The notes: generated by a model not told the origin, from the letters alone. A DNA stretch of 64,000 nt from an uncultured delta proteobacterium (GCA_963706575.1 CAVPNL010000015.1:416001-480000); one strand, 5' to 3'; shown: positions 39,925 through 55,442, numbered from the stretch's first letter. A program made the numbers and translations.

Positions 39925-41136
39925 TTATCCTTCTTTATTGCTTCGAAAAAGCTTTAGCCACGCGGCGCCGCTCATCGCCACCAGCCCTAAAGTTGCAAAC
40001 GCCACCCCCCATCCAACGGTTCCGTTACCGGCTATATCCAACACGGCGCCAACCGCAAGCGGTGCCAGAAATCCCATCGAAAGCCCGATAAATGAGTACA
40101 ATGCCATCGTTCGGCCTGTCTCTTCAGCCCTGGCTGCGGATACCAAACCCGCAGTCAGAGAACCGCTGTCTGTAATAATTGCAATCCAGTATGCAAAACA
40201 AAGACCGGTCACCATTATAAATGTCAGACTGGCTGCAAATCCGATGAGACATCCGATAAGACCGGAAATGAGCATGACGATGGTAATAAAGCGTCTTCGA
40301 CCCCAGTGCAAAGCGCCTTCATTGCCGAGAATGCTTGCCGGCACACCGGCTAAAAGGATTAGCGTTACAAGGCTCTGAGGGCTGAGCCTAAGATTGATCT
40401 GTGGTTGGAGACTCAGACTGAAAAACATAAATGCGACCATCCATGAACGAAAACCGAAAAGTTCCCAGCAATGGGCAGCATAGCCCAGCATATATCCTAT
40501 GGCCGAACGGTTTCGAAGGGCAGGCCGGAAATCCAAAAAGGATGTTCCGGCCGCTTGATCGACTGTCTGCGGCGGCTTGGGTCTGACGGCCAACGCAAAG
40601 AGTACAACCCCAGCAACCGGAAACAGCCCCATTAATATCGCCGCCCAGCGCCAGCCGAAATAGCCGGTCAGCCATCCCGCCAAAAATACGGACAGGGCGT
40701 TTCCAACACCAATGGAAGCCGTATAGAATGATATTGCCCGGCTTTGATTTGCACCGCTAATCCTGTCACTCAGCGCCCTCACGCCCGGCATATAGGTGCC
40801 GGCAAAGCTGATTCCTGCCAGAAGGCGAAATGCCGTTGCCGTCCAGATACCCTGCGCCACTAACCCAAAGCCCATCAAAGAAACCGCGCCTAATCCTGCG
40901 GAGAGCAAATAAATTTTGCGTGGGTCCACGCGGTCTGTTAAACTCGCCAAAATAGGCACGCTGGCAGCATACCCGCCGAAATAGATGCCACTGATCCAGC
41001 CGGCCTCCGTATTGGTAAGCCCCCATTCGGCCTGAAAATTCGGCAGCAGCGCCGGAAAATAGTTAATCGCCGCAATAGAAAAAATTTGAGAAAGGCAGAC
41101 ACGGATAATTAAAGAATTCATCTTCGAATAGGCCAA
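39925..41136 (-). CDS. MFS transporter
   Basis: About 12 TM; LTDRVDPRKI motif A; YMPG and HCWELF. Confidence 0.88.
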   Translation of the reverse strand: MAYSKMNSLIIRVCLSQIFSIAAINYFPALLPNFQAEWGLTNTEAGWISGIYFGGYAASVPILASLTDRVDPRKIYLLSAGLGAVSLMGFGLVAQGIWTATAFRLLAGISFAGTYMPGVRALSDRISGANQSRAISFYTASIGVGNALSVFLAGWLTGYFGWRWAAILMGLFPVAGVVLFALAVRPKPPQTVDQAAGTSFLDFRPALRNRSAIGYMLGYAAHCWELFGFRSWMVAFMFFSLSLQPQINLRLSPQSLVTLILLAGVPASILGNEGALHWGRRRFITIVMLISGLIGCLIGFAASLTFIMVTGLCFAYWIAIITDSGSLTAGLVSAARAEETGRTMALYSFIGLSMGFLAPLAVGAVLDIAGNGTVGWGVAFATLGLVAMSGAAWLKLFRSNKEG

Positions 41137-41154
41137 AGGAAGGAAGTTTTAAAA

Positions 41155-42540
41155 TTAGCCCTGATCTTTTAACAAAAGCAGCGAAAAAACCTTTAAATCC
41201 TGTTCGTTCTCCAAAGATTTTACCCTTTCTATTATTTCGTTTTGTTTTACTTCAAAAAAAACCGGTGAAACCAGATTTCTGAATTTATCGATTAGCTCAT
41301 CCCATGTCAGCGAGTTCTCAGGGTCACCTTTTGGATAATCGATTCTGGTCGAATAGGTTTTTCCATCTTTTGTCAACAGGGTTACAGCGGCCGGCCACTT
41401 CTTCGGAAATTCCTTTTCCAGTTCAGGATCCTCTACACAGGAAATTTTTCCCATCAACTTCCTAACCCGGGCTGAATTGATACTTTCCAGCGTGTATTCA
41501 TCCAGCGTCGCCTTTCCATACAAAATGGCCACTGCAGCGCCAAAGGGCATGCTAAACTGGGCATCAACAACTGACTTTGGATTGGATTTCTGTTCTTCCG
41601 GCACTGCGATGAGGGCAAAGCCAGCTTTAAGGATTCCTATAATTACTTTTTCAATCTGAGAGGCATCTATATTATTTTCGCGCACAATCTTCAATATGCC
41701 GTCAATCGGGCCCTGCTTATATCGGCAGCAGGCGTGCGGCTTAATACTGGTACGCAATACCTCCCAGGGATCTCCCCAATCCTGCAAGACTTTGCCGGAT
41801 TTTGAACCGGATGAATAGGCATGCAAAAATCCAAACCTGCCCTCTATAATTGTGCCGGGTCCGGTAAAATTTTCGCGCGCGAGCAAAGCCGCAATTATAC
41901 CGCTATGCGCGGCCCAGCCGGGGTGCAGTCGTTTGGTAAAGGCTCCGTCAGATAAAAATTCCATAGATCCCGCCGCCTGACTGCCGGCGATGCCTAAGGC
42001 ATTGATCATTGCTTTTTGATCGAGTTTAAGTATTTTTGCTGCGGTGATGGCAGCTCCCATTGTTCCGCAGGTTCCGGTGGGATGAAAGCCCCGAGCATAA
42101 TGCGCTGCCGGATCCAGCGCCACCCCCAGTTTGATCATCACTTCGTAACCCGTGGCTATGGCTGCAATTAATTCTTTAGCGGAACAACCGGCAAGATGCG
42201 CTGCGGCCAAAGCCGCCGGCATGATCGCTACCGCCGGATGGAGTGAAGCTTCATTAACGACATCATCCAACTCCAGAGAATGTGCGGCTGTGCCGTTGGC
42301 CATGGCTGCATAAGATGGACTGGCCTTAAGATGGGTCCCGATGACAACCGCACCATCCCGGGCTTCATCAAAATTTAAGATATACTTTTGAAGCGGGCCG
42401 CTGGATTCGCTCAAGGCACCCCGCGCCGCAACCCCGATGAAGTCAAGAACAAGGTATTTAACACGATCAACGACATCGTCTGTTAATGCATCGTAATTGA
42501 GGTCATGACACCTTTGAACCAAATCTTTTGTTACTTCCAT
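41155..42540 (-). CDS. MmgE/PrpD family protein
   Basis: HSLELDD, HP, GFHPTG, KPHACC, QFSMP and PKGDPEN motifs. Confidence 0.92.
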   Translation of the reverse strand: MEVTKDLVQRCHDLNYDALTDDVVDRVKYLVLDFIGVAARGALSESSGPLQKYILNFDEARDGAVVIGTHLKASPSYAAMANGTAAHSLELDDVVNEASLHPAVAIMPAALAAAHLAGCSAKELIAAIATGYEVMIKLGVALDPAAHYARGFHPTGTCGTMGAAITAAKILKLDQKAMINALGIAGSQAAGSMEFLSDGAFTKRLHPGWAAHSGIIAALLARENFTGPGTIIEGRFGFLHAYSSGSKSGKVLQDWGDPWEVLRTSIKPHACCRYKQGPIDGILKIVRENNIDASQIEKVIIGILKAGFALIAVPEEQKSNPKSVVDAQFSMPFGAAVAILYGKATLDEYTLESINSARVRKLMGKISCVEDPELEKEFPKKWPAAVTLLTKDGKTYSTRIDYPKGDPENSLTWDELIDKFRNLVSPVFFEVKQNEIIERVKSLENEQDLKVFSLLLLKDQG

Positions 42541-42618
42541 TTTAAATTCCAATCTTTGGTTAAAAAGTAATCACCAAAAGACGAAAGCACGAAATTATCC
42601 TTTCTTTTTCCGGGTTTC

Positions 42619-42999
42619 TTAATCGTAAACGGCGACCTCAATCAAATTCTGATCCGGATCCCGAATGTAAATTGAGGTCATCGGACCCATGGCACCGGTT
42701 CTTTCTACGGGTCCCTCAATAATTTTTACACCGCAGAGGTCCAAATGGCTCATGATTTTCATAAGGGAATCACGGGCCACAAGGCAAAGATCGGCGGAAC
42801 CCGGGGTTGGGCGTAACGCTTTGGGATCAAACTCTTTCCCGGATTCATGAAAGTTGATTTTCTGGTTGCCAAAGACGACGGCTTTACGCCCGTTTTGAAA
42901 AGCAACCGCCTTCATTCCCAGGACCTTTGTATAAAAAGCGCAACTGGCTTTAATATTCTGAACGGTTAAAACCAGATGATCGATACGCTCTATTTTCAT
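42619..42999 (-). CDS. VOC/glyoxalase family protein (GLOD5/PA0880-like)
   Basis: IDHLVLTV, QKINFH, PTPGSADLC, GPVERTGA and RDPDQNLIE motifs. Confidence 0.9.
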   Translation of the reverse strand: MKIERIDHLVLTVQNIKASCAFYTKVLGMKAVAFQNGRKAVVFGNQKINFHESGKEFDPKALRPTPGSADLCLVARDSLMKIMSHLDLCGVKIIEGPVERTGAMGPMTSIYIRDPDQNLIEVAVYD

Positions 43000-43055
43000 G
43001 AGGAGCCCCTTGGTGTCATAAAATTAGACGCTTCATCCCGCGAAGCGGGGCAAAA

Positions 43056-43796
43056 TTAACTTTCGTCAATGATCCGTCCTTCTTTGGCCAAGGCAATAAA
43101 ATGGGCCACATCGATTTCTTTGGGGCAAACAAAGGAACATGCCCGGGAGGAATGACACCGATAAACCCCCTGGTCGCTGTACAATATTTTCAACCGCTCG
43201 GCTTTTTCCTGCTCACGTGGGTCCATTACGCGCACGATGCTTGCCAGCATCGCATTGGGTCCCAGAAAATTATGGTGACTGCTGATACAGGCCGAGGCAC
43301 AACAAAAACAATTGATACAGCGGGTGGCATTGACATAATGTTCCAATCTCTGAGGCATTATCGGATACGCATCCTGCTCTGATGACGGAGAGCCGGGCTC
43401 GATAACATAAGGTTGAACCCGGTCTATTCTTTCATAGGCACGGGTAAAATCCACCACCAGGTCACGCACCACCGGGGCCACATTCAGCGGTTCAATCGTG
43501 AAGGTGTCGGTTTTAAAGTATTGGACCGCGTTTTCGACAAGAAGTTCACAGGCCAACAGCGGTTTCCCATTGACTTTGACCGAACACGTTCCACACTGGC
43601 CATGTTCGCAGGAGGAGTTCCAGGCCAGAGTCGGATCCTGCTCATCGTTTATTTTGCGAAAGAGATCCACAAACCGCAGGATTCGACCGGCTTCTAAATG
43701 ATAGGCTTGAACCCAGGATCGTTTCTCCTCCGGATCGTAGCGCTGAATCTTCAGCGTAAGCTTATAAACTTGCGAGTGAGCGTTTTCTTTACTCAT
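43056..43796 (-). CDS. sdhB: Succinate dehydrogenase/fumarate reductase-like iron-sulfur subunit
   Basis: CEHGQCGTC...LAC (2Fe-2S), CINCFCCASAC and CHSSRACSFVCP. Confidence 0.88.
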   Translation of the reverse strand: MSKENAHSQVYKLTLKIQRYDPEEKRSWVQAYHLEAGRILRFVDLFRKINDEQDPTLAWNSSCEHGQCGTCSVKVNGKPLLACELLVENAVQYFKTDTFTIEPLNVAPVVRDLVVDFTRAYERIDRVQPYVIEPGSPSSEQDAYPIMPQRLEHYVNATRCINCFCCASACISSHHNFLGPNAMLASIVRVMDPREQEKAERLKILYSDQGVYRCHSSRACSFVCPKEIDVAHFIALAKEGRIIDES

Positions 43797-43827
43797 AAAA
43801 GCGAACTTCCTATTCCGGTGATAGATT

Positions 43828-43912
43828 TCACGCAAAGCCGCTAAGCCCGCAAAGAAAAGCGATTAAAAATAAACAGATTTAATATGCTTTGCGACTTTGC
43901 GACTTTGCGTGA
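43828..43912. repeat. Inverted short-unit repeat element (CGCAAAG/CTTTGCG)
   Basis: tcacgcaaagccgctaagcccgcaaag ... ctttgcgactttgcgactttgcgtga. Confidence 0.7.
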
Positions 43913-43941
43913 GGCTAATTCGAGCTTTGTTTCAGCATAAT

Positions 43942-45744
43942 TCAGTATCTGCGCTCTATAATTCCAAACTTCTCTGCAAACTCCCCGCCTTCTTCTAAAA
44001 TACTCATATCCACATTGCACTTGCTGATTTCAACTTTACCGAACTGCTTCATGGATACGAGCGTATGATGGTTAAAGGTATCGCTTCTTTCGGGAAAATC
44101 TTCGCGAAAATGAGCACCACGGGATTCTTTTCTATTCAGCGCGGCCTGAGCAACGGCCATGGAAACCGTTAGAAGGTTGTCCAGTTCCCAATGCTGAACC
44201 AGTTCCTGATTCATGCGCAGACTCTGGCTGGATAACGCCGTCTGATCGGCACGCTCTTTTAATTCATTTAAAATATCGATTGCCTTGGCAAGCCCTTCTG
44301 CGGTTCTAAAAACACCGACATTTGCGGTCATCATCGTGCACAGGGCATCGCGGATATGCCCGATGTTGTCCTTTCCCTTTGCTTCGAAGTAGCCTTTAAA
44401 TTGCGAAACAGAATGACGGCTCTCGGCTTGCGGGATTTTTTCAGACAGCTGGGTTAGATACGCCAAGATGCTGTTACCGACGAATTTGCCCATGGTAATC
44501 AGCTCTAATAAGGAATTGGTGCCCAGTCGGTTAAAACCATGAAAGCTGGCTGCTGCACATTCACCGATGGCATACAATCCCGCAATGCTTTGCCCGTTGA
44601 TGTCCTGCACTTCACCATATTCACTGGTGGGAATACCGCCCATGTGGTAGTGATTGCTCGGATGCACCGGGCAAAGCCTCTTTTTCGGATCAAGGTTCAG
44701 GTATTTTTTAAAAAAGCCGCTTACCTCTGGAATCTGCTGGTCATGGACCGCATCCGGCAGGTGTCTTAAGTCGATCCAAATATGTTCAACATTATGGTCG
44801 GGGTTCAATATGCCTCTTCCCTCACGAATTTCAGAGGCAATCGCCCGCGACACCAAATCCCGGGGCGCCAGTTCCTTCATTTTGGGTGCATAGCGCTCCA
44901 TAAAAGCGTGCTCATCCCTGTTGCGCAGAATACCTCCCACCGACCGCAGGGTTTCACTGGCCAGAATACCGGGGCCTACAATTCCGGTGGGATGAAACTG
45001 GACGGCCTCTGGATCCATCACGGGCAGCCCGGCCTGGAGAGTAAGCGCCAGACCGTCTCCTGTATTTTGGCGACAATTGGTTGTGACCTTGAAAATCTGG
45101 CCGCTTCCCCCGGTGGCTAAAACGGTGGCCTTTGCTAGAATCCGGATGAATTCGCCTTCTTTTTGTTTGAAAACAATGCAACCCACACACTGGCGGTCAT
45201 TAAAGAGAAGCTCAGTGGCAATACCCTGATTGATAAAGGAAATGTTTCGCTTCAAAGATTCCCCCCAGCAGGTATCCATAATTCCTTTGCCGGTACGATC
45301 GGCCTCAAAAACGGCCCGATAGGCCGAAGATTGCCCAAAATTGACGGTATGGCCGCCAAAAGTTCGTTTAGCGGGCGTCCCATCAGTATCACGGCTAAAA
45401 TGCATTCCTTTATTTTCCAGCCATACAATCTGCTCCCAGGCGGCATTGCAAATTTTGCGGATAATGTTCTGATCGGCGGTACAATCGGATCCTTTCCAGG
45501 TGTCGAACATGTGATAAACGGGTTTGTCCGTCGGATCCTTTGGATCGACGGCGGCCAGCCCACCCTGAGCGGTTGAGGTGTGTGATTTTTGAGGATGAGC
45601 ACTTTTGGTTATTGCAATGATCCGGGTTTGTGGCCTTTTATCGAATACCTCAGCCGCACAGCGCAACCCGGCACCGCCGGCACCAACAATAAGCAGGTCG
45701 CATTCAATTGTTGAGTTTATTCTCAGTGCTTTATTCAAAGTCAC
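43942..45744 (-). CDS. sdhA: Succinate dehydrogenase/fumarate reductase-like flavoprotein subunit (start approximate)
   Basis: GAGGAG, SHTSTAQGG (FAD His), QFHPT, ELAPRD, HYHMGG, NRLGTNSL and ESRGAH motifs. Confidence 0.92.
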   Translation of the reverse strand: MTLNKALRINSTIECDLLIVGAGGAGLRCAAEVFDKRPQTRIIAITKSAHPQKSHTSTAQGGLAAVDPKDPTDKPVYHMFDTWKGSDCTADQNIIRKICNAAWEQIVWLENKGMHFSRDTDGTPAKRTFGGHTVNFGQSSAYRAVFEADRTGKGIMDTCWGESLKRNISFINQGIATELLFNDRQCVGCIVFKQKEGEFIRILAKATVLATGGSGQIFKVTTNCRQNTGDGLALTLQAGLPVMDPEAVQFHPTGIVGPGILASETLRSVGGILRNRDEHAFMERYAPKMKELAPRDLVSRAIASEIREGRGILNPDHNVEHIWIDLRHLPDAVHDQQIPEVSGFFKKYLNLDPKKRLCPVHPSNHYHMGGIPTSEYGEVQDINGQSIAGLYAIGECAAASFHGFNRLGTNSLLELITMGKFVGNSILAYLTQLSEKIPQAESRHSVSQFKGYFEAKGKDNIGHIRDALCTMMTANVGVFRTAEGLAKAIDILNELKERADQTALSSQSLRMNQELVQHWELDNLLTVSMAVAQAALNRKESRGAHFREDFPERSDTFNHHTLVSMKQFGKVEISKCNVDMSILEEGGEFAEKFGIIERRY

Positions 45745-45760
45745 GTCCCTGGGGCACTTA

Positions 45761-45858
45761 GGATTTCGGATTGCAGATTGCGGATTGCGGATTTTGAATA
45801 CGCGATATGTTTGATATTGCAATCTGCAATCTGCAATCCGCAATCTAAAATCCGCAAT
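45761..45858. repeat. Heptamer inverted-repeat element (GATTGCG/CGCAATC)
   Basis: ggatttcggattgcagattgcggattgcggatt ... aatctgcaatctgcaatccgcaatctaaaatccgcaat. Confidence 0.75.
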
Positions 45859-45896
45859 TGATTTTACTCCAATGCTCCAAAATTAATTGATGCGCA

Positions 45897-46724
45897 TTAT
45901 ATCATCAGGGTCAGTCTGATGCCGACCCAACCAAAAACAACCATCACCAAAAAAATTAAACCGGTCAAGCCTGTCTGCAGCAGCCCGGACTTCAGGTAAT
46001 CCCTGATGATGGCCGTTAAACCATATCCGGCGTGATACAACCCAATGATCACCAGCGTCAGGTCGATAAATTTAATAAAAATGCTTTGCATTCTAGCAAT
46101 CACAACGCCAGCTTCGTGGCCAACTGCGGGTTGAAGATGCATAAAAAGAAGATGGGCTGGAATCATGACGATCAAATATGCGCCGCTGATACGCTGAAAC
46201 TTCCAGGTAATCGAAGCCGCGATATTCCAAACTTTGGCGGCTACCAGATAGCAGGGGAGGATGCCGAGAATAAAAATGATTAACCAAAAAAATATCGGCG
46301 ATACCGTCTGATTCCCCATGACCATCAACAGTCCGAGCAATGAAAAATAAATAGCGGAAAGTCCCAGCACCCAGCGAATCATAGATTCATCATTACGAAT
46401 CCCGAAGATTTCATAAAGGATCAACCGGCCGCCATTGAGGGCGTGGAAGATTACCGGCGCAGCCAACAGCCACTCCAGAAAAGAAAAAGGAAAAAAACTG
46501 AAGAGTTTCATTTTCGCATCAAAGGCATCAGGTGTGGCCAGAAAAGAAAGCGTGTAAATGTGGATCCCGATATAAAGTACCATGAGCAGGCCGCTGATTC
46601 GATGCGTCCAGGCAATCACAAAGGGCCAGCCCCGTGTTTTGGCGTAAAATGATACCACGGGCACATTTTCAAGCCCTGAAAGAATCCGTTTCACAAGCGA
46701 TGTTTTAGAAAAATAGGCAATCAT
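45897..46724 (-). CDS. sdhC: Fused SdhC-SdhD-like cytochrome b membrane anchor
   Basis: SdhC half HRISG...HALNG.R and SdhD half QRISG...H...HAGYGL..II.DY in one polypeptide. Confidence 0.8.
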   Translation of the reverse strand: MIAYFSKTSLVKRILSGLENVPVVSFYAKTRGWPFVIAWTHRISGLLMVLYIGIHIYTLSFLATPDAFDAKMKLFSFFPFSFLEWLLAAPVIFHALNGGRLILYEIFGIRNDESMIRWVLGLSAIYFSLLGLLMVMGNQTVSPIFFWLIIFILGILPCYLVAAKVWNIAASITWKFQRISGAYLIVMIPAHLLFMHLQPAVGHEAGVVIARMQSIFIKFIDLTLVIIGLYHAGYGLTAIIRDYLKSGLLQTGLTGLIFLVMVVFGWVGIRLTLMI

Positions 46725-46728
46725 TCCG

Positions 46729-47478
46729 CTAGCTTCTGTCTTCAGTCATCTGGCGACTATCTTCTGTCTTCCGGCTACGATTGTCTTGCTCATCCAAATA
46801 GGCTAAAAAAGACCGGTGAGCCACCTGGATATGCTCTTGCACCAAATTTCCGATCACCTGTTGATCTGCGTCTTGTTTCCTGAAATGAGCAAAAATCTTT
46901 TGATGCACATCTAGCGATCTAAATAAGTCTTCCTTGTAATATTGGTATGAAAACCGATACCACAAACTGTGCATTCTCAATGTTTTCAATACGTTTATGA
47001 GGAGGTCATTGGTCGAAGCCTCTATAAAAATGTCGTGAAATTCAATGTGATTTCTCCAATACGCCTTCGTGTCATTTTTCTTTACCGCCGTTGCCATTTC
47101 ATCCAGCACATGCGACATGGCTTCAAGGGCGTTTTCCGTCATTTTTTGATAGGCTTCCTGGGCTGCCAGACCTTCAAGCACGGCCCTGACCGGAAAATTT
47201 TCTTCAATATCTTTGCGCGTGATGCGTTTAACAAATGTGCCTCTCCTGGGGATAATGACCACCAGACCTTTCTTTTCGAGATCGCGAAACGCCTCGCGCA
47301 GCGGGGACCGGCTGATACCGAACTGCTTCTGCAATTCAGCCTCCACGAGCTGGTCGCCGCCTTTCAGAACGCCCTCCAATATCGCTTCTGTCAGGATACG
47401 CGAAACCTGTTCCCCGAGCACATGGGGCTGGAAATTTAGGTTTTTAATTTTCCCGTTAAGTTTTTCTGATTCCATCAA
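46729..47478 (-). CDS. GntR family transcriptional regulator (FCD domain)
   Basis: FGISRSPLREA HTH; RAVLEG, FH and H..I motifs of the FCD domain. Confidence 0.92.
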   Translation of the reverse strand: MMESEKLNGKIKNLNFQPHVLGEQVSRILTEAILEGVLKGGDQLVEAELQKQFGISRSPLREAFRDLEKKGLVVIIPRRGTFVKRITRKDIEENFPVRAVLEGLAAQEAYQKMTENALEAMSHVLDEMATAVKKNDTKAYWRNHIEFHDIFIEASTNDLLINVLKTLRMHSLWYRFSYQYYKEDLFRSLDVHQKIFAHFRKQDADQQVIGNLVQEHIQVAHRSFLAYLDEQDNRSRKTEDSRQMTEDRS

Positions 47479-47579
47479 ATGAAGTAATAATTATTTTGTT
47501 AATTGCCATATTTTAATCATTCTTTGTGTTCTTCGTGATCTTCGTGGTTAATTCCGTTTTGTTTGCAAACCCGTTTAGA

Positions 47580-47798
47580 TTATTCTTCATAAAGCTTATG
47601 AATCGTAATGGCTCCTTGAGGAAATGACTCGACACAGAGCATACACAAGGTGCATTCATCCTCATTTTCTGGGACCACCACCGGCCGATTGCCCTCCATT
47701 TTAAAAATATTCACCGGGCATACCTGAACCCACTCGGCAATTTTCTTGCTGCCGGCACACTTGGACATATTGATTTCTACCTTGATAAATTCACCCAT
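47580..47798 (-). CDS. Ferredoxin (probably one 4Fe-4S cluster)
   Basis: VCP plus CTLCMLC; the second cluster motif is degenerate. Confidence 0.8.
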   Translation of the reverse strand: MGEFIKVEINMSKCAGSKKIAEWVQVCPVNIFKMEGNRPVVVPENEDECTLCMLCVESFPQGAITIHKLYEE

Positions 47799-47825
47799 AT
47801 TCAATCACTTCCTAATACCCAACAG

Positions 47826-47928
47826 GTCGGGATTGCTGATCCTTATCCGCTCAGGCGGATTATAGCATCTGCCCGATAGCGGGATCTTACGAGCGGCAAT
47901 CCTCCAAAGGCGGATAAACCCCGACAAT
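47826..47928. repeat. Structured palindromic intergenic element
   Basis: gtcggg...ttatccgc / gcggataa..cccgac with internal atccgctcaggcggat. Confidence 0.5.
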
Positions 47929-47955
47929 CGCTCAGTTTAGGTAATAAATATTCAG

Positions 47956-48840
47956 TTAAGATATTTTGGTTGCTATATTTAAAATCCTCTTTGCCCGCTC
48001 CACCACCGGGCGGTCAACAAATTTGCCTTCCAGTTGGAATACGCCGCTGCCGCCGGCTTCAGCCTCATCAAAGGCTTGAATCACTTTTTGGGCATATTGG
48101 ATTTCTTTTTTTGATGGCGAAAACAGTCGGTTACAAATATCGATCTGGTTGGGGTGAATACACAGCTTGCCCTGAAATCCAAGCAGGCAGGCGCGTTTAA
48201 TGTCGGCTTCTAGCGCTTCAAGGTCCTTGAGATCAATCATAAATGGTGTGTCCAGGGGCGGCTCCACACCCGCGGCCCGGCAGGCAACCGCAATCCGCGC
48301 ACGCGGGTAAAAAAGCTCTTCTCCGGATTTGGTGATTTCAAATCCCATATCCAGGGTAAAATCGGCTGCACCAAAAGCAACCGTGAAGAGTCTTTCCGGA
48401 TCGGTTCTTTGCGAAACGATTTGGAAAATGTTTTCAACGGCCAGAGCCGATTCAATCAACGGCATAATTGAAACGCTCCCCGGCTGCAGACCGATGTTTT
48501 CCTCCACTTTTAGCAATTCACGATTGATTTCCAGGACCTGGGCCGCCGTCTCGACTTTTGGAATCATGATGCAGGAAAGCCCCTCGATCACCACCGCATT
48601 CAGGTCGTCCTGAAAAAATTCCGTATCCAAAGCATTAATCCGTACTAAGACCGGCCGCTTTCGATAATTCAGAAGCTTTTCGCGAACAACAGGCCGGGTT
48701 TCTTTTTTTTGTGAGTAGGGTACGGCATCTTCCAGATCGATGATGACCACATCGGCGGCGGTATTGACGGCTTTGTCGACTCGGTCCGGCCGGTTGCCCG
48801 GAACAAAAAGGGCCGTTCGTATAAATTCAAATGCTTGCAT
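47956..48840 (-). CDS. CitE-like CoA-ester lyase (HpcH/HpaI aldolase/citrate lyase family)
   Basis: RTALFVPG, DLEDAV, VRIN, PKVE, IESA, FGAADF and GKLCIHP motifs. Confidence 0.92.
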   Translation of the reverse strand: MQAFEFIRTALFVPGNRPDRVDKAVNTAADVVIIDLEDAVPYSQKKETRPVVREKLLNYRKRPVLVRINALDTEFFQDDLNAVVIEGLSCIMIPKVETAAQVLEINRELLKVEENIGLQPGSVSIMPLIESALAVENIFQIVSQRTDPERLFTVAFGAADFTLDMGFEITKSGEELFYPRARIAVACRAAGVEPPLDTPFMIDLKDLEALEADIKRACLLGFQGKLCIHPNQIDICNRLFSPSKKEIQYAQKVIQAFDEAEAGGSGVFQLEGKFVDRPVVERAKRILNIATKIS

Positions 48841-49734
48841 TTAGAGATATTCCTTTGTAATTTTCACGATATCGGAAAACGATTCTGCCACCCGGATGCC
48901 GACCTTCTGAAACATGGCGATTTTTCCTGTAGTTGTCCCGCGGTCACCTTCAACAATAGTGGCCGCGTGACCGAAGCGCACGCCCGGCATGCCATCAACA
49001 AATCGGCCGGCAATAAAGGCGATGATGGGCAGCGTAATATTTTCAGCGATTACGCGTTCGGCAAGCGTTTCCTCAATAATTCCACCCGGCTCACAAAAAA
49101 GCACAACGGCTTTTGTTTCTGGGTCCTTTGCAAACAAAGGGATTAAATCCAAAAAATTTGAGCCGACCACGGGATCGCCGCCAACGCCGATACAGGTGCT
49201 CTGGCCGATACCGTTGGTCGTCAGCAAATTTGCAATCTCGGTCGTCATGCCGCCACTTCGGGAAGCAATTCCTACCGGGCCCGGCATATAGGCTTTGTTG
49301 ACATCCTCCACCGGCCCACCCGCCATACCCAGTTTAAGAATTTGAGGCGAAATTAATCCCAGGGTATTGGGCCCGATGACACGCACGTCTTTTTCGCGGG
49401 CGGCTTCCAAAAATGCCAATGTATCTTTTCTGGGAACCCGCTCGGAAACAACCACCAAAAGACCGATACCATTGTCCAGGGCTTCCAAAACAGCCCCTTT
49501 GACAAGGGCCGGCGGTACGGAAATAACGGAAGCTTCAGCCGGATGATCTTTTAATGCCTGACGAACCGTATCATAGACCGGTATCCCGTGGACTTGCTGG
49601 CCTTTTTTTCCCGGCGTAACACCGGCCACCACACGGGTTCCGTAATCAACCATGTCTTTTGTAAAAGTGGCTGCCTCACGCCCGGTTATGCCCTGTATGA
49701 TGACTCTGGTATTTTGATCAGCTAATATCGCCAT
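48841..49734 (-). CDS. Succinyl-CoA synthetase alpha-like CoA ligase subunit
   Basis: QGITG, GVTPGK, IGPNT, SRSGG and GGD motifs; phospho-His motif RFGHA. Confidence 0.9.
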   Translation of the reverse strand: MAILADQNTRVIIQGITGREAATFTKDMVDYGTRVVAGVTPGKKGQQVHGIPVYDTVRQALKDHPAEASVISVPPALVKGAVLEALDNGIGLLVVVSERVPRKDTLAFLEAAREKDVRVIGPNTLGLISPQILKLGMAGGPVEDVNKAYMPGPVGIASRSGGMTTEIANLLTTNGIGQSTCIGVGGDPVVGSNFLDLIPLFAKDPETKAVVLFCEPGGIIEETLAERVIAENITLPIIAFIAGRFVDGMPGVRFGHAATIVEGDRGTTTGKIAMFQKVGIRVAESFSDIVKITKEYL

Positions 49735-49772
49735 CTTTATCCCTTTTTAAAGTATTTTAAATGCGCAGGAAA

Positions 49773-50957
49773 TTAAAGCTTTGATTTTTCGACTGCAATC
49801 CGAGCGGCATCATCAATGGATATCGTACGGTCACAATATGTGACGCCGTATTTGTTCAGGATCTTGAAACCTTCTTCTTCCCAGGCACCGGGGATGCGAA
49901 AAACGGCCACGGTTTCAGAAGGTACTTTCCCGGCTTCCAGAATGCCCTTAATGATTCCGCGGGCGACCAGATCAACCCGGGTGTTGCTCACCACATTCAT
50001 GATGATCGCAATTGTTTGAACATTGGGCTTTGAAAGAATCAACTTTGTCAACTCGGCAACCTTTTGAACCGACGGATTGCCTCCGATTTCACAATAATTT
50101 GCCGGCACCCCTCCATGGGCACGAACCGCATCAAAAGCAGTCAATGAAGCCCCCCCGCCACCGATGATCAAACCCATGGTGCCATCGAACTCGATCATGC
50201 GGCCGGCCACGCCTCGATGGTCGATCTGATCGATCTCTGCGGCTTTACGTTCAAATTCAGTAACATTACGAGAAGCTTTGAACCGGCTGTGATCCTCCCC
50301 CAGTTGAACGAACTCCTTGTGTCGAAAAGTGGCATCATCATCAATTTCAAGATGGCAATCCAGTGCAATCAACCGGCCATCGCCGGTTCGTGCCAGCGGA
50401 TTGATCTCAGCCAGTGTTGCGTCATAATCAATAAAAATTTCTGCCAATTTCGAAAGGATTGCAGCCAGGCCCAGCAGTTGTTTGCCGGTAACACCGGTTT
50501 CAGAAATAATTTCTCGGGCCCGGTACTGTGGCAGTCCGGATCGCAAAGAAAAGGTTTCTTGAGATACCTTACCCGGTGTACTGGCAGCGATACCCTCGAC
50601 GTCCACTCCTCCCTCTTTGGAAAAAATGGCAAGCGGCGCCTTTGTGACGGTATCGTAAGTAACGGCCATGAAAAATTCCTCTTCGACCGCCAGTTTCTCT
50701 TCAATCAGGATCTTATTGGCTTGATAACCTTTCAGTGGTGTGGCGAGCAGATGTTGCATATGGATTTTAGCATCATCGTATGTTGCCGCCGTTAGAATTC
50801 CACCGGATTTGGCCCGGCCACCGATGGGAATCTGGGCTTTTAGCATGGCCGGATATTTGATATCCAGCGGATCATCTTTTGAAACGACAACACCGGTGGG
50901 TGTTGTAATTTTGTATTTCCTTAAAATTTCTTTAGATTCAAATTCCAGTAGTCTCAT
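49773..50957 (-). CDS. Succinyl-CoA synthetase beta-like / ACL-like ATP-grasp CoA ligase subunit
   Basis: KAQIPIGGRAKSGG and EINPL; acid-binding loops GGGGAS and PANYCEIGGNP. Confidence 0.88.
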   Translation of the reverse strand: MRLLEFESKEILRKYKITTPTGVVVSKDDPLDIKYPAMLKAQIPIGGRAKSGGILTAATYDDAKIHMQHLLATPLKGYQANKILIEEKLAVEEEFFMAVTYDTVTKAPLAIFSKEGGVDVEGIAASTPGKVSQETFSLRSGLPQYRAREIISETGVTGKQLLGLAAILSKLAEIFIDYDATLAEINPLARTGDGRLIALDCHLEIDDDATFRHKEFVQLGEDHSRFKASRNVTEFERKAAEIDQIDHRGVAGRMIEFDGTMGLIIGGGGASLTAFDAVRAHGGVPANYCEIGGNPSVQKVAELTKLILSKPNVQTIAIIMNVVSNTRVDLVARGIIKGILEAGKVPSETVAVFRIPGAWEEEGFKILNKYGVTYCDRTISIDDAARIAVEKSKL

Positions 50958-50969
50958 CAGCCCTCCATT

Positions 50970-51012
50970 TGGTCGATTGTCGACTATTTGCATATTGGTT
51001 GATTGGTGTCAA
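50970..51012. promoter_or_regulatory. Putative GntR operator overlapping the minus-strand promoter
   Basis: Near-palindrome ATTGTCGACTAT (50976-50987) within repeated TGGT(C/T)GATTG; TTGACA on the minus strand at ~51007-51012. Confidence 0.45.
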
Positions 51013-51294
51013 GAAAAATAAGCCGGATGAAAGCGCTTAGCGCCCGTCCGTCACCGGCATGTCTGGGGAGACGGATGTCTACTTTTATTCAACTTGACTT
51101 TCCCACTATTTTACTGATATTCAACCCCTGTTTGAGTGAAAATTTTTAATAATAACCAATAGATTCCGGATTGTTTGATGGGTAGATCGGCTATGATTCA
51201 AACGTATTAAATGCCCCGCTTCTTTGAACGAGAGCGGGGTTTTATTTTGAAAAGGGGAACAGGCCGATTAGTTAACTTATTAAAATAAGGAGGT

Positions 51295-51720
51295 ATGAGG
51301 ATGAAGAAATTGAAAAAAGTGATCCCAATCCTGATTTTGTGTCTGGCTATGGGTGTCTGGCTTGCTGGCTGCGCCGGCAAAGGTGCGCCTGAAAAGACCA
51401 ATTGTGATGCCAGCATCAAATGGGATGTGACTGATCAGGCCAAGCTCACCCAGTTTGACTGTGCGGTGGGCAAACACGGCGGCCAGCCATCTTTGATTTT
51501 TACCATCGGCATCGAAAATCCAACCGAACAGCCCTATCGGTACCGGGTCAACGTTTTTCTGGAGGACATGGACAAAGCCGCCGGACATTACGTGCCGCGC
51601 AAAGGCAAACCACCGGTCGTAAATCCCGGCAAAACAGAAACCGTCAAGATCCCTTTTATCGGAACCGACCAATTGTCGAAAAAAGTCCTGGTAGTGGTGA
51701 CGACGATGAGCCGGGATTAA
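51295..51720 (+). CDS. Lipoprotein, beta-sandwich-like, first gene of the TAXI operon
   Basis: LAGC lipobox; RBS AAGGAGG. Confidence 0.8.
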   Translation: MRMKKLKKVIPILILCLAMGVWLAGCAGKGAPEKTNCDASIKWDVTDQAKLTQFDCAVGKHGGQPSLIFTIGIENPTEQPYRYRVNVFLEDMDKAAGHYVPRKGKPPVVNPGKTETVKIPFIGTDQLSKKVLVVVTTMSRD

Positions 51721-51767
51721 ATTGAGATCACATCAAATGATAGCAGATATGAAGGAGGAAGTTTAAG

Positions 51768-52751
51768 ATGAAAAAGCTGAATATGAAATGTGTCCTTGCG
51801 GGCATTTTTATTTTATGCACGGTTTTATTGATCAGCGGTCCGGCTCTGGCCCGCACCGAATTTATTTCCCTCGGAACCGGGGGAACCGGCGGTATTTACT
51901 ATCCCTACGGCGGCGGTGTGGCAGAAATCTGGAACCGGCATGCCCCCGGCGTCAGAGCGGTAGCCGAGGTGACCGGGGCCAGTGTCGAAAACGTCAAGCT
52001 GGCCCATAAAGGTGAAACCGTCATTGGGGAAGTTATGGGTGATGTGGCGGTGGACGGTTTTAAGGGTCTCACCAAATTTAAAGGCAAAAAACACGATATC
52101 CTCTCCATGGCCATCATGTATCCCAACCTGCTGCAAGTGGTCACTCTTAAAAAATACGGGATTACCAATATTGAACAGATCAAAGGCAAAAAGATCAGCT
52201 CCGGCAGTCCGGGCAGCGGCACCAACTTCATGGCCGAGGCCGTGTTTGAGGCCCTGGGCATACCGAAAGATTCATACAAAGACAGCCGCCTGTCTTTTAC
52301 CGAAAGTGCCAATGCGTTGAGAGACGGCACCATCGAAGTGGGGGTGTGGTCCGTGGGACCCGGAACCAGCTCAATTCTGGATCTGGCCACCACCCATGAT
52401 ATTCACATCATTAATTTTACACCCGAACAGCAAAATAAAATTTTGGCTACCCGAAAAGAATATTCGGCGGTGGATCTGGCCGGCGGTGTGTACCGCGGGG
52501 TGGACAAGGCCGTACCTACCATCGGTGTGTGGAACGTGATGATTTGTCAAACGGGTCTGAGCACAGACCTGGTCTATAAGCTCGCGAAAGCCCTATATGA
52601 GCACCAGGACTATCTGCTCAAGATTCACCCGTCGGCCTCGTACACGACACCTGAAAATGCGGTGAAGTACTCACCGATTCCTTTGCATCCGGGCACGATC
52701 AAATATCTGAAAGAAAAGGGTGTCGCCGTGCCGGCCAAGCTGATGCCGTAA
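51768..52751 (+). CDS. TAXI family TRAP solute-binding protein
   Basis: GTGGTGGIYYPYG, TGASVEN, GSPGSGT and PIPLHPG motifs. Confidence 0.93.
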   Translation: MKKLNMKCVLAGIFILCTVLLISGPALARTEFISLGTGGTGGIYYPYGGGVAEIWNRHAPGVRAVAEVTGASVENVKLAHKGETVIGEVMGDVAVDGFKGLTKFKGKKHDILSMAIMYPNLLQVVTLKKYGITNIEQIKGKKISSGSPGSGTNFMAEAVFEALGIPKDSYKDSRLSFTESANALRDGTIEVGVWSVGPGTSSILDLATTHDIHIINFTPEQQNKILATRKEYSAVDLAGGVYRGVDKAVPTIGVWNVMICQTGLSTDLVYKLAKALYEHQDYLLKIHPSASYTTPENAVKYSPIPLHPGTIKYLKEKGVAVPAKLMP

Positions 52752-53294
52752 ATGAAAGAATCGACCGGGAAAAGCCGGCTGCCGCTGATGGTGGCAGCCG
52801 GCCTGGTAGCTGTCTTTTTTTTGGTCAGCTGGCGCGTACCCGGTGGTCTGGAATTAACCGTTACACCGCTAAAAGGCGGTCCACCGCTGCTGACTCTGCC
52901 CCTGCAGCCCGGTGAGCGCTTTACCCTGCATTATTATCATTCGGTCGAAAAGGCCCCGATCTGGGAAGAGCACAGCCTGGACACCGCAGGCCGTATTTAC
53001 ATTGAAGAGGAGCGCTATTTGAAATTCGGCGCCGGCATGGGCCGCATGCCCGGTGTGGGCCGCATGGTCCGGCGGGGCAAGTATGAGGTTATCGAAGATA
53101 TGCACATGCCCACCGGGGATTTTGTACTGCGGGTGGGCAGCCCCGGTGTCGATCATACCGTTATCTGGCGCGGCCGCCGTAAAAACCTGTCGGCAGTGGC
53201 CCCGCACGCAGCGGTCCAGTTTTCCGCCCGACCTGTGAGTTTGTTGTACAACCTGTGGCGTCGAATAGTACCGCATCCGGCAACGCCAAAGTAA
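52752..53294 (+). CDS. DUF1850 domain protein
   Basis: F.LHYYHSVEK.P..E and FGAGM motifs; located between TAXI and permease. Confidence 0.85.
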   Translation: MKESTGKSRLPLMVAAGLVAVFFLVSWRVPGGLELTVTPLKGGPPLLTLPLQPGERFTLHYYHSVEKAPIWEEHSLDTAGRIYIEEERYLKFGAGMGRMPGVGRMVRRGKYEVIEDMHMPTGDFVLRVGSPGVDHTVIWRGRRKNLSAVAPHAAVQFSARPVSLLYNLWRRIVPHPATPK

Positions 53295-53310
53295 CGGCCG
53301 GAGCACAAAA

Positions 53311-53466
53311 ATCGTGGTGGAAGCCACTCCCACAGCTATCGGCAATCAGCGCAGATTTCTCATGTTCTTATCGAAATAATTTGTGGGAGCGGCATATTGC
53401 CGCGATACTCGAGTAGGGTCGGCCATCGTGCCGACCAGACCAGCGGCCACTGTGGACCGCCCTATG
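53311..53466. repeat. Cluster of GTGG/GTAG-type REP sequences (REPIN/BIME-like)
   Basis: atcgtggtggaagccactcccaca / tgtgggagcggcatattgccgcgat and gtagggtcggccatcgtgccgacc / ggaccgccctat. Confidence 0.65.
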
Positions 53467-53519
53467 CCAACACTTCAAATTCAGATCGAACGTTACGAAA
53501 ACCTCGCAAGGAAATTTTA

Positions 53520-55442
53520 ATGGCGAAGCCTGAATCAGCAGAAACCAAAACCCCCACTGCCTGGCTGATTGCCAAAAGCCTGACAATCATCGGTGTGGTC
53601 CTTAGCCTTTTTCAGCTGTATACTGCCGGTATGGTGGCCATGACCGCCATGCGCCACCGGTCCGTTTTTTTAACCTGCATTCTGGCAATGACCTTTTTAA
53701 TTAAACCCCTGTACAAAGGGGCCCGTAAAGATAAATTAAACTTTGCTATGGTTGTCGATCTGATTTTAATCGCCATGACGGTTTTCATCGGGCTTTACAT
53801 TTTTATCGATTTGCAGGGCATCTTCGAGCGCCAGGGGGACTGGAGCCCCTGGGATTTTCGGGTGGGCGTTGCACTGGTGATCCTGGTGCTGGAGGCCACC
53901 CGCCGGGTGATCGGTTTGAATTTAACGATCATTGCCATTATGGCTCTGCTTTTTGGCTATTTCGGCCCCTGGATGCCGGAGCTGATCGTTCACAAGGGGT
54001 ACAGTGTCGAGCGCATCGCCACCACCCTTTCGCTGACCACCGAGGGTATCTTCGGTTTGCCCCTGGGGGTGGCATCCACCTTTGTTTTCATATTCATCCT
54101 GTTCGGGGCCTTTCTGGATAAAACCGGGGCGGGCAAATTTTTTATCGACCTTTCTTATTCCATTACCGGGCGCTTTTCCGGCGGCCCCGCCAAGACAGCG
54201 GTGGTGGCCAGCGGGTTTATGGGCTCGGTGGCCGGCAGTGCCGTGGCCAACGTGGTGGCCACCGGATCCTTTACGATCCCCATGATGAAAAAAATCGGCT
54301 ACCGCAAACATGTGGCCGCGGCGGTGGAAGCCGCCGCTTCGACGGGGGGACAGCTGATGCCGCCCATTATGGGTGCCGGCGCCTTTCTGATGGCTGAATT
54401 TACCCAGACGCCCTATCTCGAAATCGTTAAAATTGCATTTATTCCGGCGGTACTTTACTTTTTTTCGGTCATCTTGTTCGTGCATTTTGAGGCCCAGAAA
54501 CAGGGTATCTGGGGGCTACCAAAGGACCAGTTGCCGAACATCGTTCAAACCCTTAAAGCGGGGATTCACTTTATTATCCCGGTGGCCATTCTCATTACCG
54601 TGCTGGTCATGAACTACAGCCCGATGATGGCCGGATTTATTGCCATTTTAGCCGTATACTGCACCGCCTTGATACGCAAAGGCTCCCGGATTTCTTTTGC
54701 CACCCTGATTAAGACCCTGGAACAGGGGGCCCGCAACGCTATCGTTGTAGCGGTGGCCTGCGCGGCCGCCGGCATCATCGTGGGGATTGTGAACTTAACC
54801 GGCACCGGGCTGCGCTTTTCTTCTCTGGTGGTTTCGCTTTCCCAGGGTATTCCGCTGCTCGCCCTGTTACTGGTCGCATTGACCTCTCTTTTTCTGGGAA
54901 TGGGATTGCCGGTGACGGCTTCTTATATTGTTTTGATCATTCTGGCCGGCCCCGGACTCATGGATCTGGGGATACCGCTGCTCACCGCCCACATGGTGGT
55001 TTTCTGGTACAGCCAGGATGCCAATGTCACGCCCCCGGTGGCCCTGGAATCCTTTGCCGCCTCCGGAATTGCCGGTTCAAGCCCGATGAAAACTGCGTTT
55101 ACGTCCTGGAAACTGGCCAAGGGCCTGTATATCATTCCCATCATTATGGTCTACCATCCGCTGCTTTTAAACGGGCCCACCCCAGAGGTCATCAAAACGG
55201 TTATTTTTTCGGTTTTTTCGATCATCGCCTTTGTGGTCTGTATGGAACGTTATTTTCTAACACACCTGACCTGGCCGGAAACGATTTTGCAGGGCGCCAG
55301 CGCCCTGTTGCTCATCTGGGCCAATCCGACTTACAATTATATCGGTCTGGTCATATTCATTATCCTGGTCGTTTATCAAATTATCCACAAGAAAAAACAT
55401 CCAGGACCGCAACCGCCACCATCCAAACCATCTCCAGTGTAA
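53520..55442 (+). CDS. TRAP transporter fused 4TM/12TM permease
   Basis: LEATRR, GGPAK, ASTGGQLMPPIMGAGAF, LGMGLP and TPPVAL motifs. Confidence 0.93.
   Translation: MAKPESAETKTPTAWLIAKSLTIIGVVLSLFQLYTAGMVAMTAMRHRSVFLTCILAMTFLIKPLYKGARKDKLNFAMVVDLILIAMTVFIGLYIFIDLQGIFERQGDWSPWDFRVGVALVILVLEATRRVIGLNLTIIAIMALLFGYFGPWMPELIVHKGYSVERIATTLSLTTEGIFGLPLGVASTFVFIFILFGAFLDKTGAGKFFIDLSYSITGRFSGGPAKTAVVASGFMGSVAGSAVANVVATGSFTIPMMKKIGYRKHVAAAVEAAASTGGQLMPPIMGAGAFLMAEFTQTPYLEIVKIAFIPAVLYFFSVILFVHFEAQKQGIWGLPKDQLPNIVQTLKAGIHFIIPVAILITVLVMNYSPMMAGFIAILAVYCTALIRKGSRISFATLIKTLEQGARNAIVVAVACAAAGIIVGIVNLTGTGLRFSSLVVSLSQGIPLLALLLVALTSLFLGMGLPVTASYIVLIILAGPGLMDLGIPLLTAHMVVFWYSQDANVTPPVALESFAASGIAGSSPMKTAFTSWKLAKGLYIIPIIMVYHPLLLNGPTPEVIKTVIFSVFSIIAFVVCMERYFLTHLTWPETILQGASALLLIWANPTYNYIGLVIFIILVVYQIIHKKKHPGPQPPPSKPSPV

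Follow-up and report, generated by a model that had tools for sequence, protein, structure and literature searches.

A 64-kb stretch of DNA from an uncultured delta proteobacterium (contig C15:416001-480000 of genome G000; this whole stretch is called the window here) carries a cassette of genes for a succinate dehydrogenase (SDH) paralog, an ATP-dependent acid-coenzyme A (CoA) ligase, a CitE-family lyase, an MmgE/PrpD protein and a GntR regulator. The cassette is real and conserved, its core recurs in many uncultured anaerobes, and it is apparently uncharacterised. We give an even chance to the reading that it is a mobile operon for a free-acid 2-substituted succinate, most likely methylsuccinate, which would be converted to pyruvate and acetyl-CoA. 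The genome (5.67 Mb, 92% complete) contains dsrA above the profile cut-off, which indicates a sulfate-reducing host, and the closest relatives of the window genes carry the labels of Desulfobacterales and other deltaproteobacterial metagenome-assembled genomes.

In the proposed route, the MmgE/PrpD protein would interconvert (R)- and (S)-methylsuccinate, and the SdhAB-CD paralog would oxidise the (S)-enantiomer to mesaconate with menaquinone as acceptor. A class I fumarase, encoded outside the locus, would hydrate mesaconate to (S)-citramalate, the alpha/beta ligase, probably with a 4Fe-4S third subunit, would spend ATP to form (S)-citramalyl-CoA, and the CitE protein would split the latter into pyruvate and acetyl-CoA for the sulfate-reducing host. 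The original prediction, made from the sequence alone, had offered the methylsuccinate-mesaconate-citramalate sequence as one option. It is the best supported of the routes weighed here and retains the ATP-dependent ligase and the SDH, while the dedicated TAXI-TRAP transporter that had belonged to it is dropped. All 15 open reading frames (ORFs) named in that prediction are present, intact, oriented as described and of matching families.

Automatic annotation labels the products succinate dehydrogenase and succinyl-CoA synthetase, in line with ordinary housekeeping tricarboxylic acid (TCA) cycle genes that cluster by chance. A second SucCD, beside methylmalonyl-CoA genes on contig C6, is only 29% (beta/SucC) and 42% (alpha/SucD) identical to the window ligase; an SdhAB fragment on C5 shows 45% identity to the window copy and a further Sdh operon on C3 shows 25%. 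The presence of this SucCD and of two other SdhA/FrdA loci, a check that had been proposed, makes the window enzymes paralogs. The C5 gene is cut by the contig end and frameshifted, which leaves the chance account something to appeal to, but both ligase subunits miss the NCBIfam cut-offs of the housekeeping models (beta 261.3 against 370 for the SucC equivalog, alpha 294.4 against 336 for SucD), and the patchy spread and insertion boundaries described below also speak against it. This account is already largely refuted, and its probability is close to negligible. The second MmgE/PrpD of the genome is 28% identical to the window protein, and the CitE-family lyase is present as a single copy by tblastn.

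Of 60 relatives, 10 carry the ligase paralog (at least 68% identity; partial in one case) and 14 carry the SdhA paralog at full length, plus one fragment; a set of 400 genomes from across the phylum had the SdhA paralog in 11. Many of the relative and phylum genomes surveyed are incomplete. Gene neighbourhoods were compared in 80 ligase-anchored loci, comprising 29 close (ligase beta 56-78% identical) and 51 more distant ones, and in 91 SdhA-anchored loci (80 metagenome and 11 genome), 21 of which form a long subset with at least 5 kb upstream and at least 2.5 kb downstream. Among the 29 close ligase loci, many of whose contigs end early and so lower the counts, we found alpha in 27, the Fe-S protein in 21, CitE in 20, PrpD in 15, SdhCD in 14, SdhA in 13, GntR in 10, VOC in 3 and MFS in none. 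The 21 long SdhA-anchored loci contained MmgE/PrpD in 18 cases, ligase beta in 10 and CitE in 9. These counts on both anchors bear out the expectation that the core is conserved across genomes, and they separate two modules, PrpD plus SDH and ligase plus Fe-S protein plus lyase, which often travel together. The 51 distant ligase loci (Thermoleophilia, Dehalococcoidia and Myxococcota) had no SDH match and carried Mcl-like lyases, with a RipB/Ich-like MaoC gene in one checked case; shadow ORFs in DNA of high GC content blurred their clustering. No cultured carrier was found among the named database matches, the best plasmid match of the ligase being 32.8%, and the ESM Atlas gave SucC-like clusters only. 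Sequencing runs yielded small word shares and short diverged contigs, uninformative on expression.

Several variant arrangements were also recorded. L107 (G001:C2) and L109 (G011:C112) have CitE and SDH (and PrpD in G001) without ligase genes and with a DUF401 membrane protein upstream; DUF401, which may be a transporter, flanks the cassette in G019 and G023 also. At the same TAXI/DUF401 site in G022, the first 120 residues of a ligase-beta paralog are joined to an AMP-binding enzyme (L111 12582-14204), possibly a cassette remnant. A lone Wolinella-type FrdA, above the PRK08626 cut-off, occupies the SDH slot without nearby B or C subunits in L024 (4889-6754) and L036 (12464-14308), and in L037 the place after the ligase module is taken by an OYE-family oxidoreductase and DctPQM. 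A second, TfrA/NadB-like flavoprotein lies between SdhB and a DHDPS-family gene in L139 (9716-11305) and also in L140, L141, L142, L146, L148 and L201.

The edges of the cassette can be read from six loci of the same genus (G004, G010, G012, G013, G015 and G016), in which the upstream CoA-transferase/GNAT gene runs straight to the lipoprotein-TAXI operon with the cassette absent. The match between their DNA and the window stops at 39854-39863 and resumes at 51082-51137; the eleven minus-strand genes (39925-50957) are an inserted cassette. The proposal that the TAXI-TRAP system is dedicated to the pathway does not survive this comparison, the operon being a resident neighbour. TAXI orthologs (at least 75% identity) occur in 25 of the 60 relatives, 19 of these 25 without a full-length SdhA paralog; TAXI, DUF1850 and the lipoprotein had no matches in the 80 ligase loci, and no TAXI above 50% identity was found in the 91 SDH-paralog loci. 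In G001 and G011 the cassette without ligase genes is found close to this TAXI operon, separated from it by the DUF401 gene, and because site and genus are the same, this proximity is not independent support. The MFS transporter, also listed with the system, is lineage-specific rather than core: it occurs in same-genus cassettes and in 3 of the 91 SDH loci, and in none of the 29 close or 80 total ligase loci.

Another TAXI gene of this genome (C6:154725-155801), accompanied by a permease, a DJ-1 gene, a DHDPS-family gene and an itaconyl-CoA-hydratase homolog, is a better transporter candidate than the window TAXI. A TAXI of this type (above 60% identity) is linked to the cassette in 8 of the 91 SDH loci and also in L017, and in G012 the cassette is placed between itaconyl-CoA-hydratase and DHDPS genes. 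The C6 segment as a whole (C6:154725-160804; L096 8726-14805) holds TAXI, a fused permease, DJ-1/PfpI, a DHDPS-family gene close to PDB 3EB2, a structure of unknown function, and the itaconyl-CoA-hydratase homolog. These genes, joined to the cassette in other genomes, may form its second half here.

The SDH paralog has the hallmarks of complex II, namely the catalytic residues of the flavoprotein, the Fe-S motifs and a haem-binding anchor. SdhA passes the TIGR01812 cut-off (579.8 bits against 567.3) and misses that of the housekeeping equivalog TIGR01816 (551.3 against 727.35). Its best PDB match is 6LUM, and it has the covalent-FAD His together with counterparts of E. coli H242, E255, R286, H354 and R399; since all dicarboxylate-binding residues are retained, the substrate should be a succinate-like dicarboxylate. 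After the catalytic Glu, SdhA reads Thr-Leu-Arg-Ser-Val, in place of the Gly/Ala-x-Arg-Gly-Glu of aligned SDH and fumarate reductase (FRD) sequences. The altered hinge residues are near-invariant (119-121 of 121 rows; 84 of 90 rows in the SDH-locus set), a pattern which shows that selection acts on a property other than the ordinary state of an SDH. TIGR02970 and TIGR02968 both match a single 275-residue ORF, a fused SdhC and SdhD, and most of 15 anchor rows have two His per half, the di-haem pattern that is linked to menaquinone. SdhB contains the 2Fe-2S, 4Fe-4S and 3Fe-4S motifs, and its third cluster motif carries the SDH-type His, which speaks for the SDH direction rather than reductive use.

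Complex II enzymes are reversible, and the same C5 acids could be put to the opposite net use: mesaconate or citramalate would be dismutated, with one part split into pyruvate and acetyl-CoA and the other serving as an electron sink when the complex reduces it to methylsuccinate. Gut anaerobes are known to reduce itaconate to methylsuccinate, according to the accessible part of PMC12290011. The host of the window is likewise an anaerobe with dsrA, the ligase and lyase are kept without SDH in some loci, and a di-haem-type anchor would suit menaquinol. We nevertheless regard such a sink as decidedly improbable, as an isomerase of the saturated acid serves uptake of both enantiomers and not excretion of one, and the His of the third SdhB motif is of the SDH type.

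In the ligase, the best PDB match of the acid domain of beta is citryl-CoA synthetase (6HXQ_B), and the earlier label of ACL-like was right. The acid-binding loops differ from those of the genome's SucC and of E. coli SucC and are invariant within the ligase family; alignment to 6HXQ_B places in beta a citryl-CoA-synthetase-type citrate-binding loop ending in Asn-Thr. In ATP-citrate lyase, R379 is presumed here to bind the non-reacting (third) carboxylate of citrate; replacing this arm of citrate by a methyl group gives (S)-citramalate with the spatial arrangement unchanged. By the numbering in the available part of PMC13670275, R363 of CcsA is the equivalent of ACLY R379. Beta has Ile at this position, and Ile or Val is found there in 79 of 79 aligned homologs. 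The lack of this Arg argues against citrate and fits a 2-substituted malate without the third carboxylate, and malate equally well.

Tricarboxylates, earlier held to be equally possible substrates, thereby lose ground. A complete route of this kind can be written without any outside gene: the SDH-like complex would oxidise tricarballylate to aconitate, PrpD would hydrate it to citrate, the ligase would form citryl-CoA and CitE would release acetyl-CoA and oxaloacetate. The acid-binding domain closest to citryl-CoA synthetase agrees with it, as does the inclusion of 2-methylcitrate dehydratase in the PrpD family. It is very improbable given the missing Arg and the dicarboxylate pocket of SdhA; moreover, the window MmgE/PrpD lies far below the PrpD dehydratase models (85.5 against 950 and 37.7 against 575) and has the epimerase Tyr, and fumarase genes accompany the cassette in L029, G012 and G049.

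Malate leads to a different, C4 scheme, in which a malate-CoA ligase and malyl-CoA lyase would condense glyoxylate with acetyl-CoA and conserve ATP, and fumarase and the Sdh paralog would reduce the product to succinate or oxidise succinate. The ligase loop is common to the distant loci with Mcl-like lyases, the genome yielded no malate synthase, and the cassette is preceded by a GlcD-like dehydrogenase in L015 and by a phosphoenolpyruvate (PEP) carboxylase in L019; anaerobic glyoxylate use through malyl-CoA has been proposed in the portion of PMC8092247 available. This scheme is nonetheless distinctly unlikely, because it leaves unexplained both MmgE/PrpD, which accompanies the SDH paralog more constantly than any other partner (18 of the 21 long loci), and the keeping of a separate SDH with an altered invariant hinge beside ordinary SDHs. 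The GlcD-like and PEP carboxylase neighbours are limited to one locus each, and beta scores 179.5 on the NCBIfam malate-CoA ligase beta model, with a cut-off of 604.

The small Fe-S protein is probably a third subunit of the ligase, as judged from gene linkage and structure modelling. Its gene is found in 68 of the 80 ligase loci, most misses being cut contigs, and four invariant or near-invariant Cys suffice for one cluster. In a three-chain structure model the protein sits on the beta subunit with a score of 0.75 (best control 0.00), a mark that 51 of 78 solved complexes attained, as did 2 of 108 mismatched pairs, although a three-chain job is unlike these calibration pairs. The runs share at least 92% of contacts, and the partner has a predicted local distance difference test value (pLDDT) of at least 86. 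On the side of the Fe-S protein, 67-68 of 68 rows retain the contact residues Phe4, Asp47, Glu48, Leu51 and Tyr70, and several contact residues of beta are conserved in the family and different in the genome's SucC. As a side observation, the ligands of one cluster are lost in the window protein (47580-47798) and in distant loci, and many close deltaproteobacterial copies keep two extra N-terminal Cys. Among 8000 scored ligase candidates, 7466 had E<=1e-90, an upper bound that may include true SucC.

The window MmgE/PrpD aligns with the His, Tyr and two Lys assigned to two-base epimerases in the available part of PMC12290011, a set common to much of the family and non-diagnostic. As isomerase reference we used the MmgE/PrpD of the P. 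aeruginosa record with PA0878-PA0886 gene order and four proteins from similar clusters. In a tree of 27 rows, six cassette proteins (type B) group with these methylsuccinate-isomerase-cluster proteins (support 98/99), and type A, made up of the window protein and nine more, is a clade apart (98/96). The six are 40-43% identical to the P. aeruginosa cluster MmgE/PrpD, and type B proteins occur in 22 of the 91 SDH loci. In a 29-row SdhA tree, type A falls into three separate supported groups among type B. The alternation of the two types along this tree, with a constant SdhA hinge motif, suggests that they serve the same SDH alike, and types A and B thus look interchangeable, doing the same job. 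The CitE protein scores 248.4 against a cut-off of 443.4 for citrate-lyase CitE, and there is no CitD or CitF among the locus proteins.

The same chemistry might act on another 2-substituted succinate (hydroxymethyl-, ethyl- or similar, perhaps derived from a lactone such as paraconate), yielding acetyl-CoA and another 2-oxo acid for the DHDPS-family and reductase genes. A homolog of the PA0880-like lactonase lies within the operon, the window PrpD stands outside the methylsuccinate isomerase clade, invariant changes lie beside the catalytic Glu of SdhA, and DHDPS-family (17 of 91 SdhA-anchored loci), PcaC-like (19 of 91), HD (12 of 91) and tartronate-semialdehyde-reductase-like genes recur. 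On the other side, the SdhA pocket keeps the equivalents of Phe119, Leu252 and His242, with scant room for larger groups, and isomerase-clade PrpD and itaconyl-CoA-hydratase homologs recur, the studied members of which act on C5 acids. VOC, counted as a part of the system in the original prediction, is not core, with only 3 of the 29 close ligase loci and 8 of the 91 SDH loci containing it. A larger substrate is on balance unlikely, though it keeps some weight. The likeness of VOC to PA0880 was set aside as proof of shared function: the window protein is 60% identical to the P. aeruginosa cluster VOC and equally close to human GLOD5 and STM3117.

For methylsuccinate, the hydration step is the one without a gene in the locus, as had been pointed out before. 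The missing hydratase would most likely be a class I fumarase, one of which is encoded on C4 of this genome. In L029 SdhB is followed by a two-subunit class I fumarase, and one also flanks the cassette in G012; in G049 a fumarase lies between SdhB and PrpD and is followed by a family III CoA-transferase in the place of the ligase, with no ligase paralog found. Class I fumarase occurs in 6 of the 91 SDH loci in total, at least one of them beside malate dehydrogenases and perhaps housekeeping. An itaconyl-CoA-hydratase homolog is present in G012 and in 6 of the 91 SDH loci, and a 41% homolog lies on C6 of this genome. According to the accessible part of PMC9875883, mesaconate is hydrated to (S)-citramalate by class I fumarase in P. 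putida, where SucCD apparently fails to activate (S)-citramalate; the latter would explain a dedicated ligase. PrpD itself as the hydratase is disfavoured, type A PrpD co-occurring with fumarase in G012 and G049.

Several points weigh against methylsuccinate as the substrate. Neither methylaspartate ammonia-lyase nor another source of C5 acids was found in the 92% complete genome, the hydratase is absent from the window, and the recurrent DHDPS-family, PcaC-like and HD genes are left unexplained by this route. The window MmgE/PrpD shares only 35% identity with the P. aeruginosa isomerase and belongs to a separate clade. The Ile at the Arg position of the ligase gives no pointer to a methyl group, SucC being hydrophobic there too, and the substrate loop is nearly the same in the 51 distant SDH-less loci with Mcl-like lyases, where malate seems as likely. 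Position 119 (E. coli numbering) is Phe in 121 of 121 SdhA rows; the substitution F119L appeared when E. coli was evolved on methylsuccinate and raised the efficiency about 2-fold, in the available parts of bioRxiv 10.64898/2026.01.16.699985 and 10.1101/2025.11.12.688011. The fuller proposal, a natural pathway of anaerobes, sulfate reducers among them, in which CoA enters late, with a dedicated menaquinone-linked methylsuccinate dehydrogenase (a complex II paralog that copes with the methyl group without F119L), two interchangeable MmgE/PrpD isomerase clades and a new three-subunit [4Fe-4S] ADP-forming citramalate-CoA ligase from the citryl-CoA synthetase line, is tentative, with a probability somewhat short of even.

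A sigma-70-like promoter on the minus strand (-35 at 51012-51007, -10 at 50988-50983; match 10/12) precedes the first gene, and a palindrome overlaps its -10 box. The pattern was written after seeing the window site, from the FadR-type consensus; it has one strict match in the 64-kb window and 37 in the 5.67-Mb genome, and the same motif lies before the first gene of related cassettes. Upstream regions were compared in 26 cases. The 16 from cassettes with GntR or of the same lineage gave 10 strict matches, 3 core matches and 3 without a match (one of these regions has only 62 bases and one is not a cassette start), and among the 10 from loci without GntR there was a single core match and no strict one. 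Scans for promoters and terminators were at chance level overall (22 versus 19.5 and 26 versus 23.0); only the site bearing the conserved palindrome was used. These data suggest that the cassette is repressed by its own GntR at the palindrome.

The features of the cassette and its resident neighbour are listed in Table 1. The likely starts of ligase beta, SdhA, SdhB, the Fe-S protein (Fd) and the permease (53520) lie inside the longest ORFs, and the start of ligase beta at 50957 agrees with a 394-residue database protein.

Table 1. Coordinates of the cassette genes, the candidate operator and the adjoining operon in the window
Feature	Position	Strand	Remark
Palindromic GntR(FadR)-type operator candidate	50977..50986		Over -10 box, at 5' edge of cassette; putative function
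Ligase beta, ADP-forming acid-CoA ligase, citryl-CoA-synthetase-like, 394 aa	49773..50957	-	Proposed (S)-citramalate-CoA ligase
Ligase alpha with catalytic His motif, 297 aa	48841..49734	-	Family match
CitE-family acyl-CoA C-C lyase, 294 aa	47956..48840	-	Proposed (S)-citramalyl-CoA lyase
Small single-[4Fe-4S] protein (Fd), 72 aa	47580..47798	-	Candidate third ligase subunit
GntR-FCD regulator	46729..47478	-	Family match
Fused SdhC-SdhD membrane anchor, four His positions	45897..46724	-	Putative di-haem type
SdhA paralog, 598 aa	43942..45738	-	Proposed methylsuccinate dehydrogenase flavoprotein
SdhB paralog	43056..43796	-	2Fe-2S, 4Fe-4S and 3Fe-4S motifs
GLOD5/PA0880-like VOC protein	42619..42999	-	Possible lactonase; accessory
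MmgE/PrpD protein, type A	41155..42552	-	Proposed (R)/(S) isomerase of free acid
MFS transporter	39925..41136	-	Lineage-specific last cassette gene
Pfam-less lipoprotein-like ORF, TAXI, DUF1850 and fused TRAP permease	51295..55442	+	Resident operon at insertion site, outside cassette

The intergenic regions 45740-45895 and 43836-43941 contain short tandem repeats of 7-8 bases, which lengthen the SdhA frame upstream and match elsewhere in the genome. The resident flanking genes encode an acetyl-CoA hydrolase/transferase fused to a GNAT domain (38002-39876) and a protein with a VWA and three OmpA-like domains (55640-58507). Two glycyl-radical (PFL-like) genes are present in the genome (C3:435388-437331 and C15:69413-71353).

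If the proposed route is true, the cassette would account for anaerobic consumption of methylsuccinate; the 2025 Pseudomonas pathway work left open how this acid is turned over in the environment. Builders of synthetic C1/CO2 pathways would gain two enzymes that they lack, a natural methylsuccinate dehydrogenase acting on the free acid and a citramalate-CoA ligase that is reversible and ATP-coupled. Thousands of proteins labelled SucC or SdhA would be re-annotated, complex II would gain a member with a shifted substrate, and the SCS/ACL family an iron-sulfur subunit.

The nearest known system is the itaconate-methylsuccinate cluster of P. aeruginosa (PA0878-PA0886) and Cupriavidus necator, which shares a CitE-family lyase (35% identity), MmgE/PrpD (35%), VOC (60%) and the predicted products pyruvate and acetyl-CoA. 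The CoA-transferase Ict and the acyl-CoA dehydrogenase Mcd have no matches among the 15 locus proteins, and itaconyl-CoA hydratase and DctPQM are absent from the locus. In contrast to that cluster, the free acid would be oxidised by a membrane-bound SDH paralog and activated with ATP only after hydration, in an anaerobic host and with GntR instead of LysR. The cassette appears to work like the Pseudomonas/Cupriavidus pathway but is not a member of it, as its locus lacks the transferase, the acyl-CoA dehydrogenase and the hydratase. The available part of PMC12290011 places the isomerases almost only in Pseudomonadota and always beside an acyl-CoA dehydrogenase, and succinate dehydrogenase is not mentioned in its main text. 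Literature searches for a natural free-acid route or its enzymes, with most subscription papers outside their coverage, gave only the Pseudomonas-type cluster and engineered modules.

In the available parts of bioRxiv 10.64898/2026.01.16.699985 and 10.1101/2025.11.12.688011, E. coli Sdh, FumA and citramalate lyase support growth of engineered strains on methylsuccinate. This CoA-independent module resembles the proposed route in forming mesaconate by SDH and (S)-citramalate by class I fumarase before C-C cleavage. It relies on the F119L variant of SdhA and on a citramalate lyase that releases acetate, whereas the natural cassette keeps the Phe, adds an isomerase and would reach acetyl-CoA through the ligase and a CoA-ester lyase.

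The ligase resembles CcsAB of Hydrogenobacter (6HXQ) and ATP-citrate lyase in acid-domain motifs that SucC lacks and in the order of ligase, then lyase; it differs in having Ile/Val where the CcsA strand has its second Arg, in the CitE-type lyase and the conserved 4Fe-4S partner, and in an identity of about one third. The malate thiokinase MtkAB and malyl-CoA lyase Mcl of the serine cycle likewise couple an ADP-forming hydroxy-acid ligase to a CitE-superfamily lyase, whereas the cassette has no serine-cycle context and is linked to the SDH paralog and MmgE/PrpD. Compared with complex II as generally known, the paralog is distinguished by its fused anchor, the altered invariant motif after the catalytic Glu, and its patchy, operon-linked occurrence.

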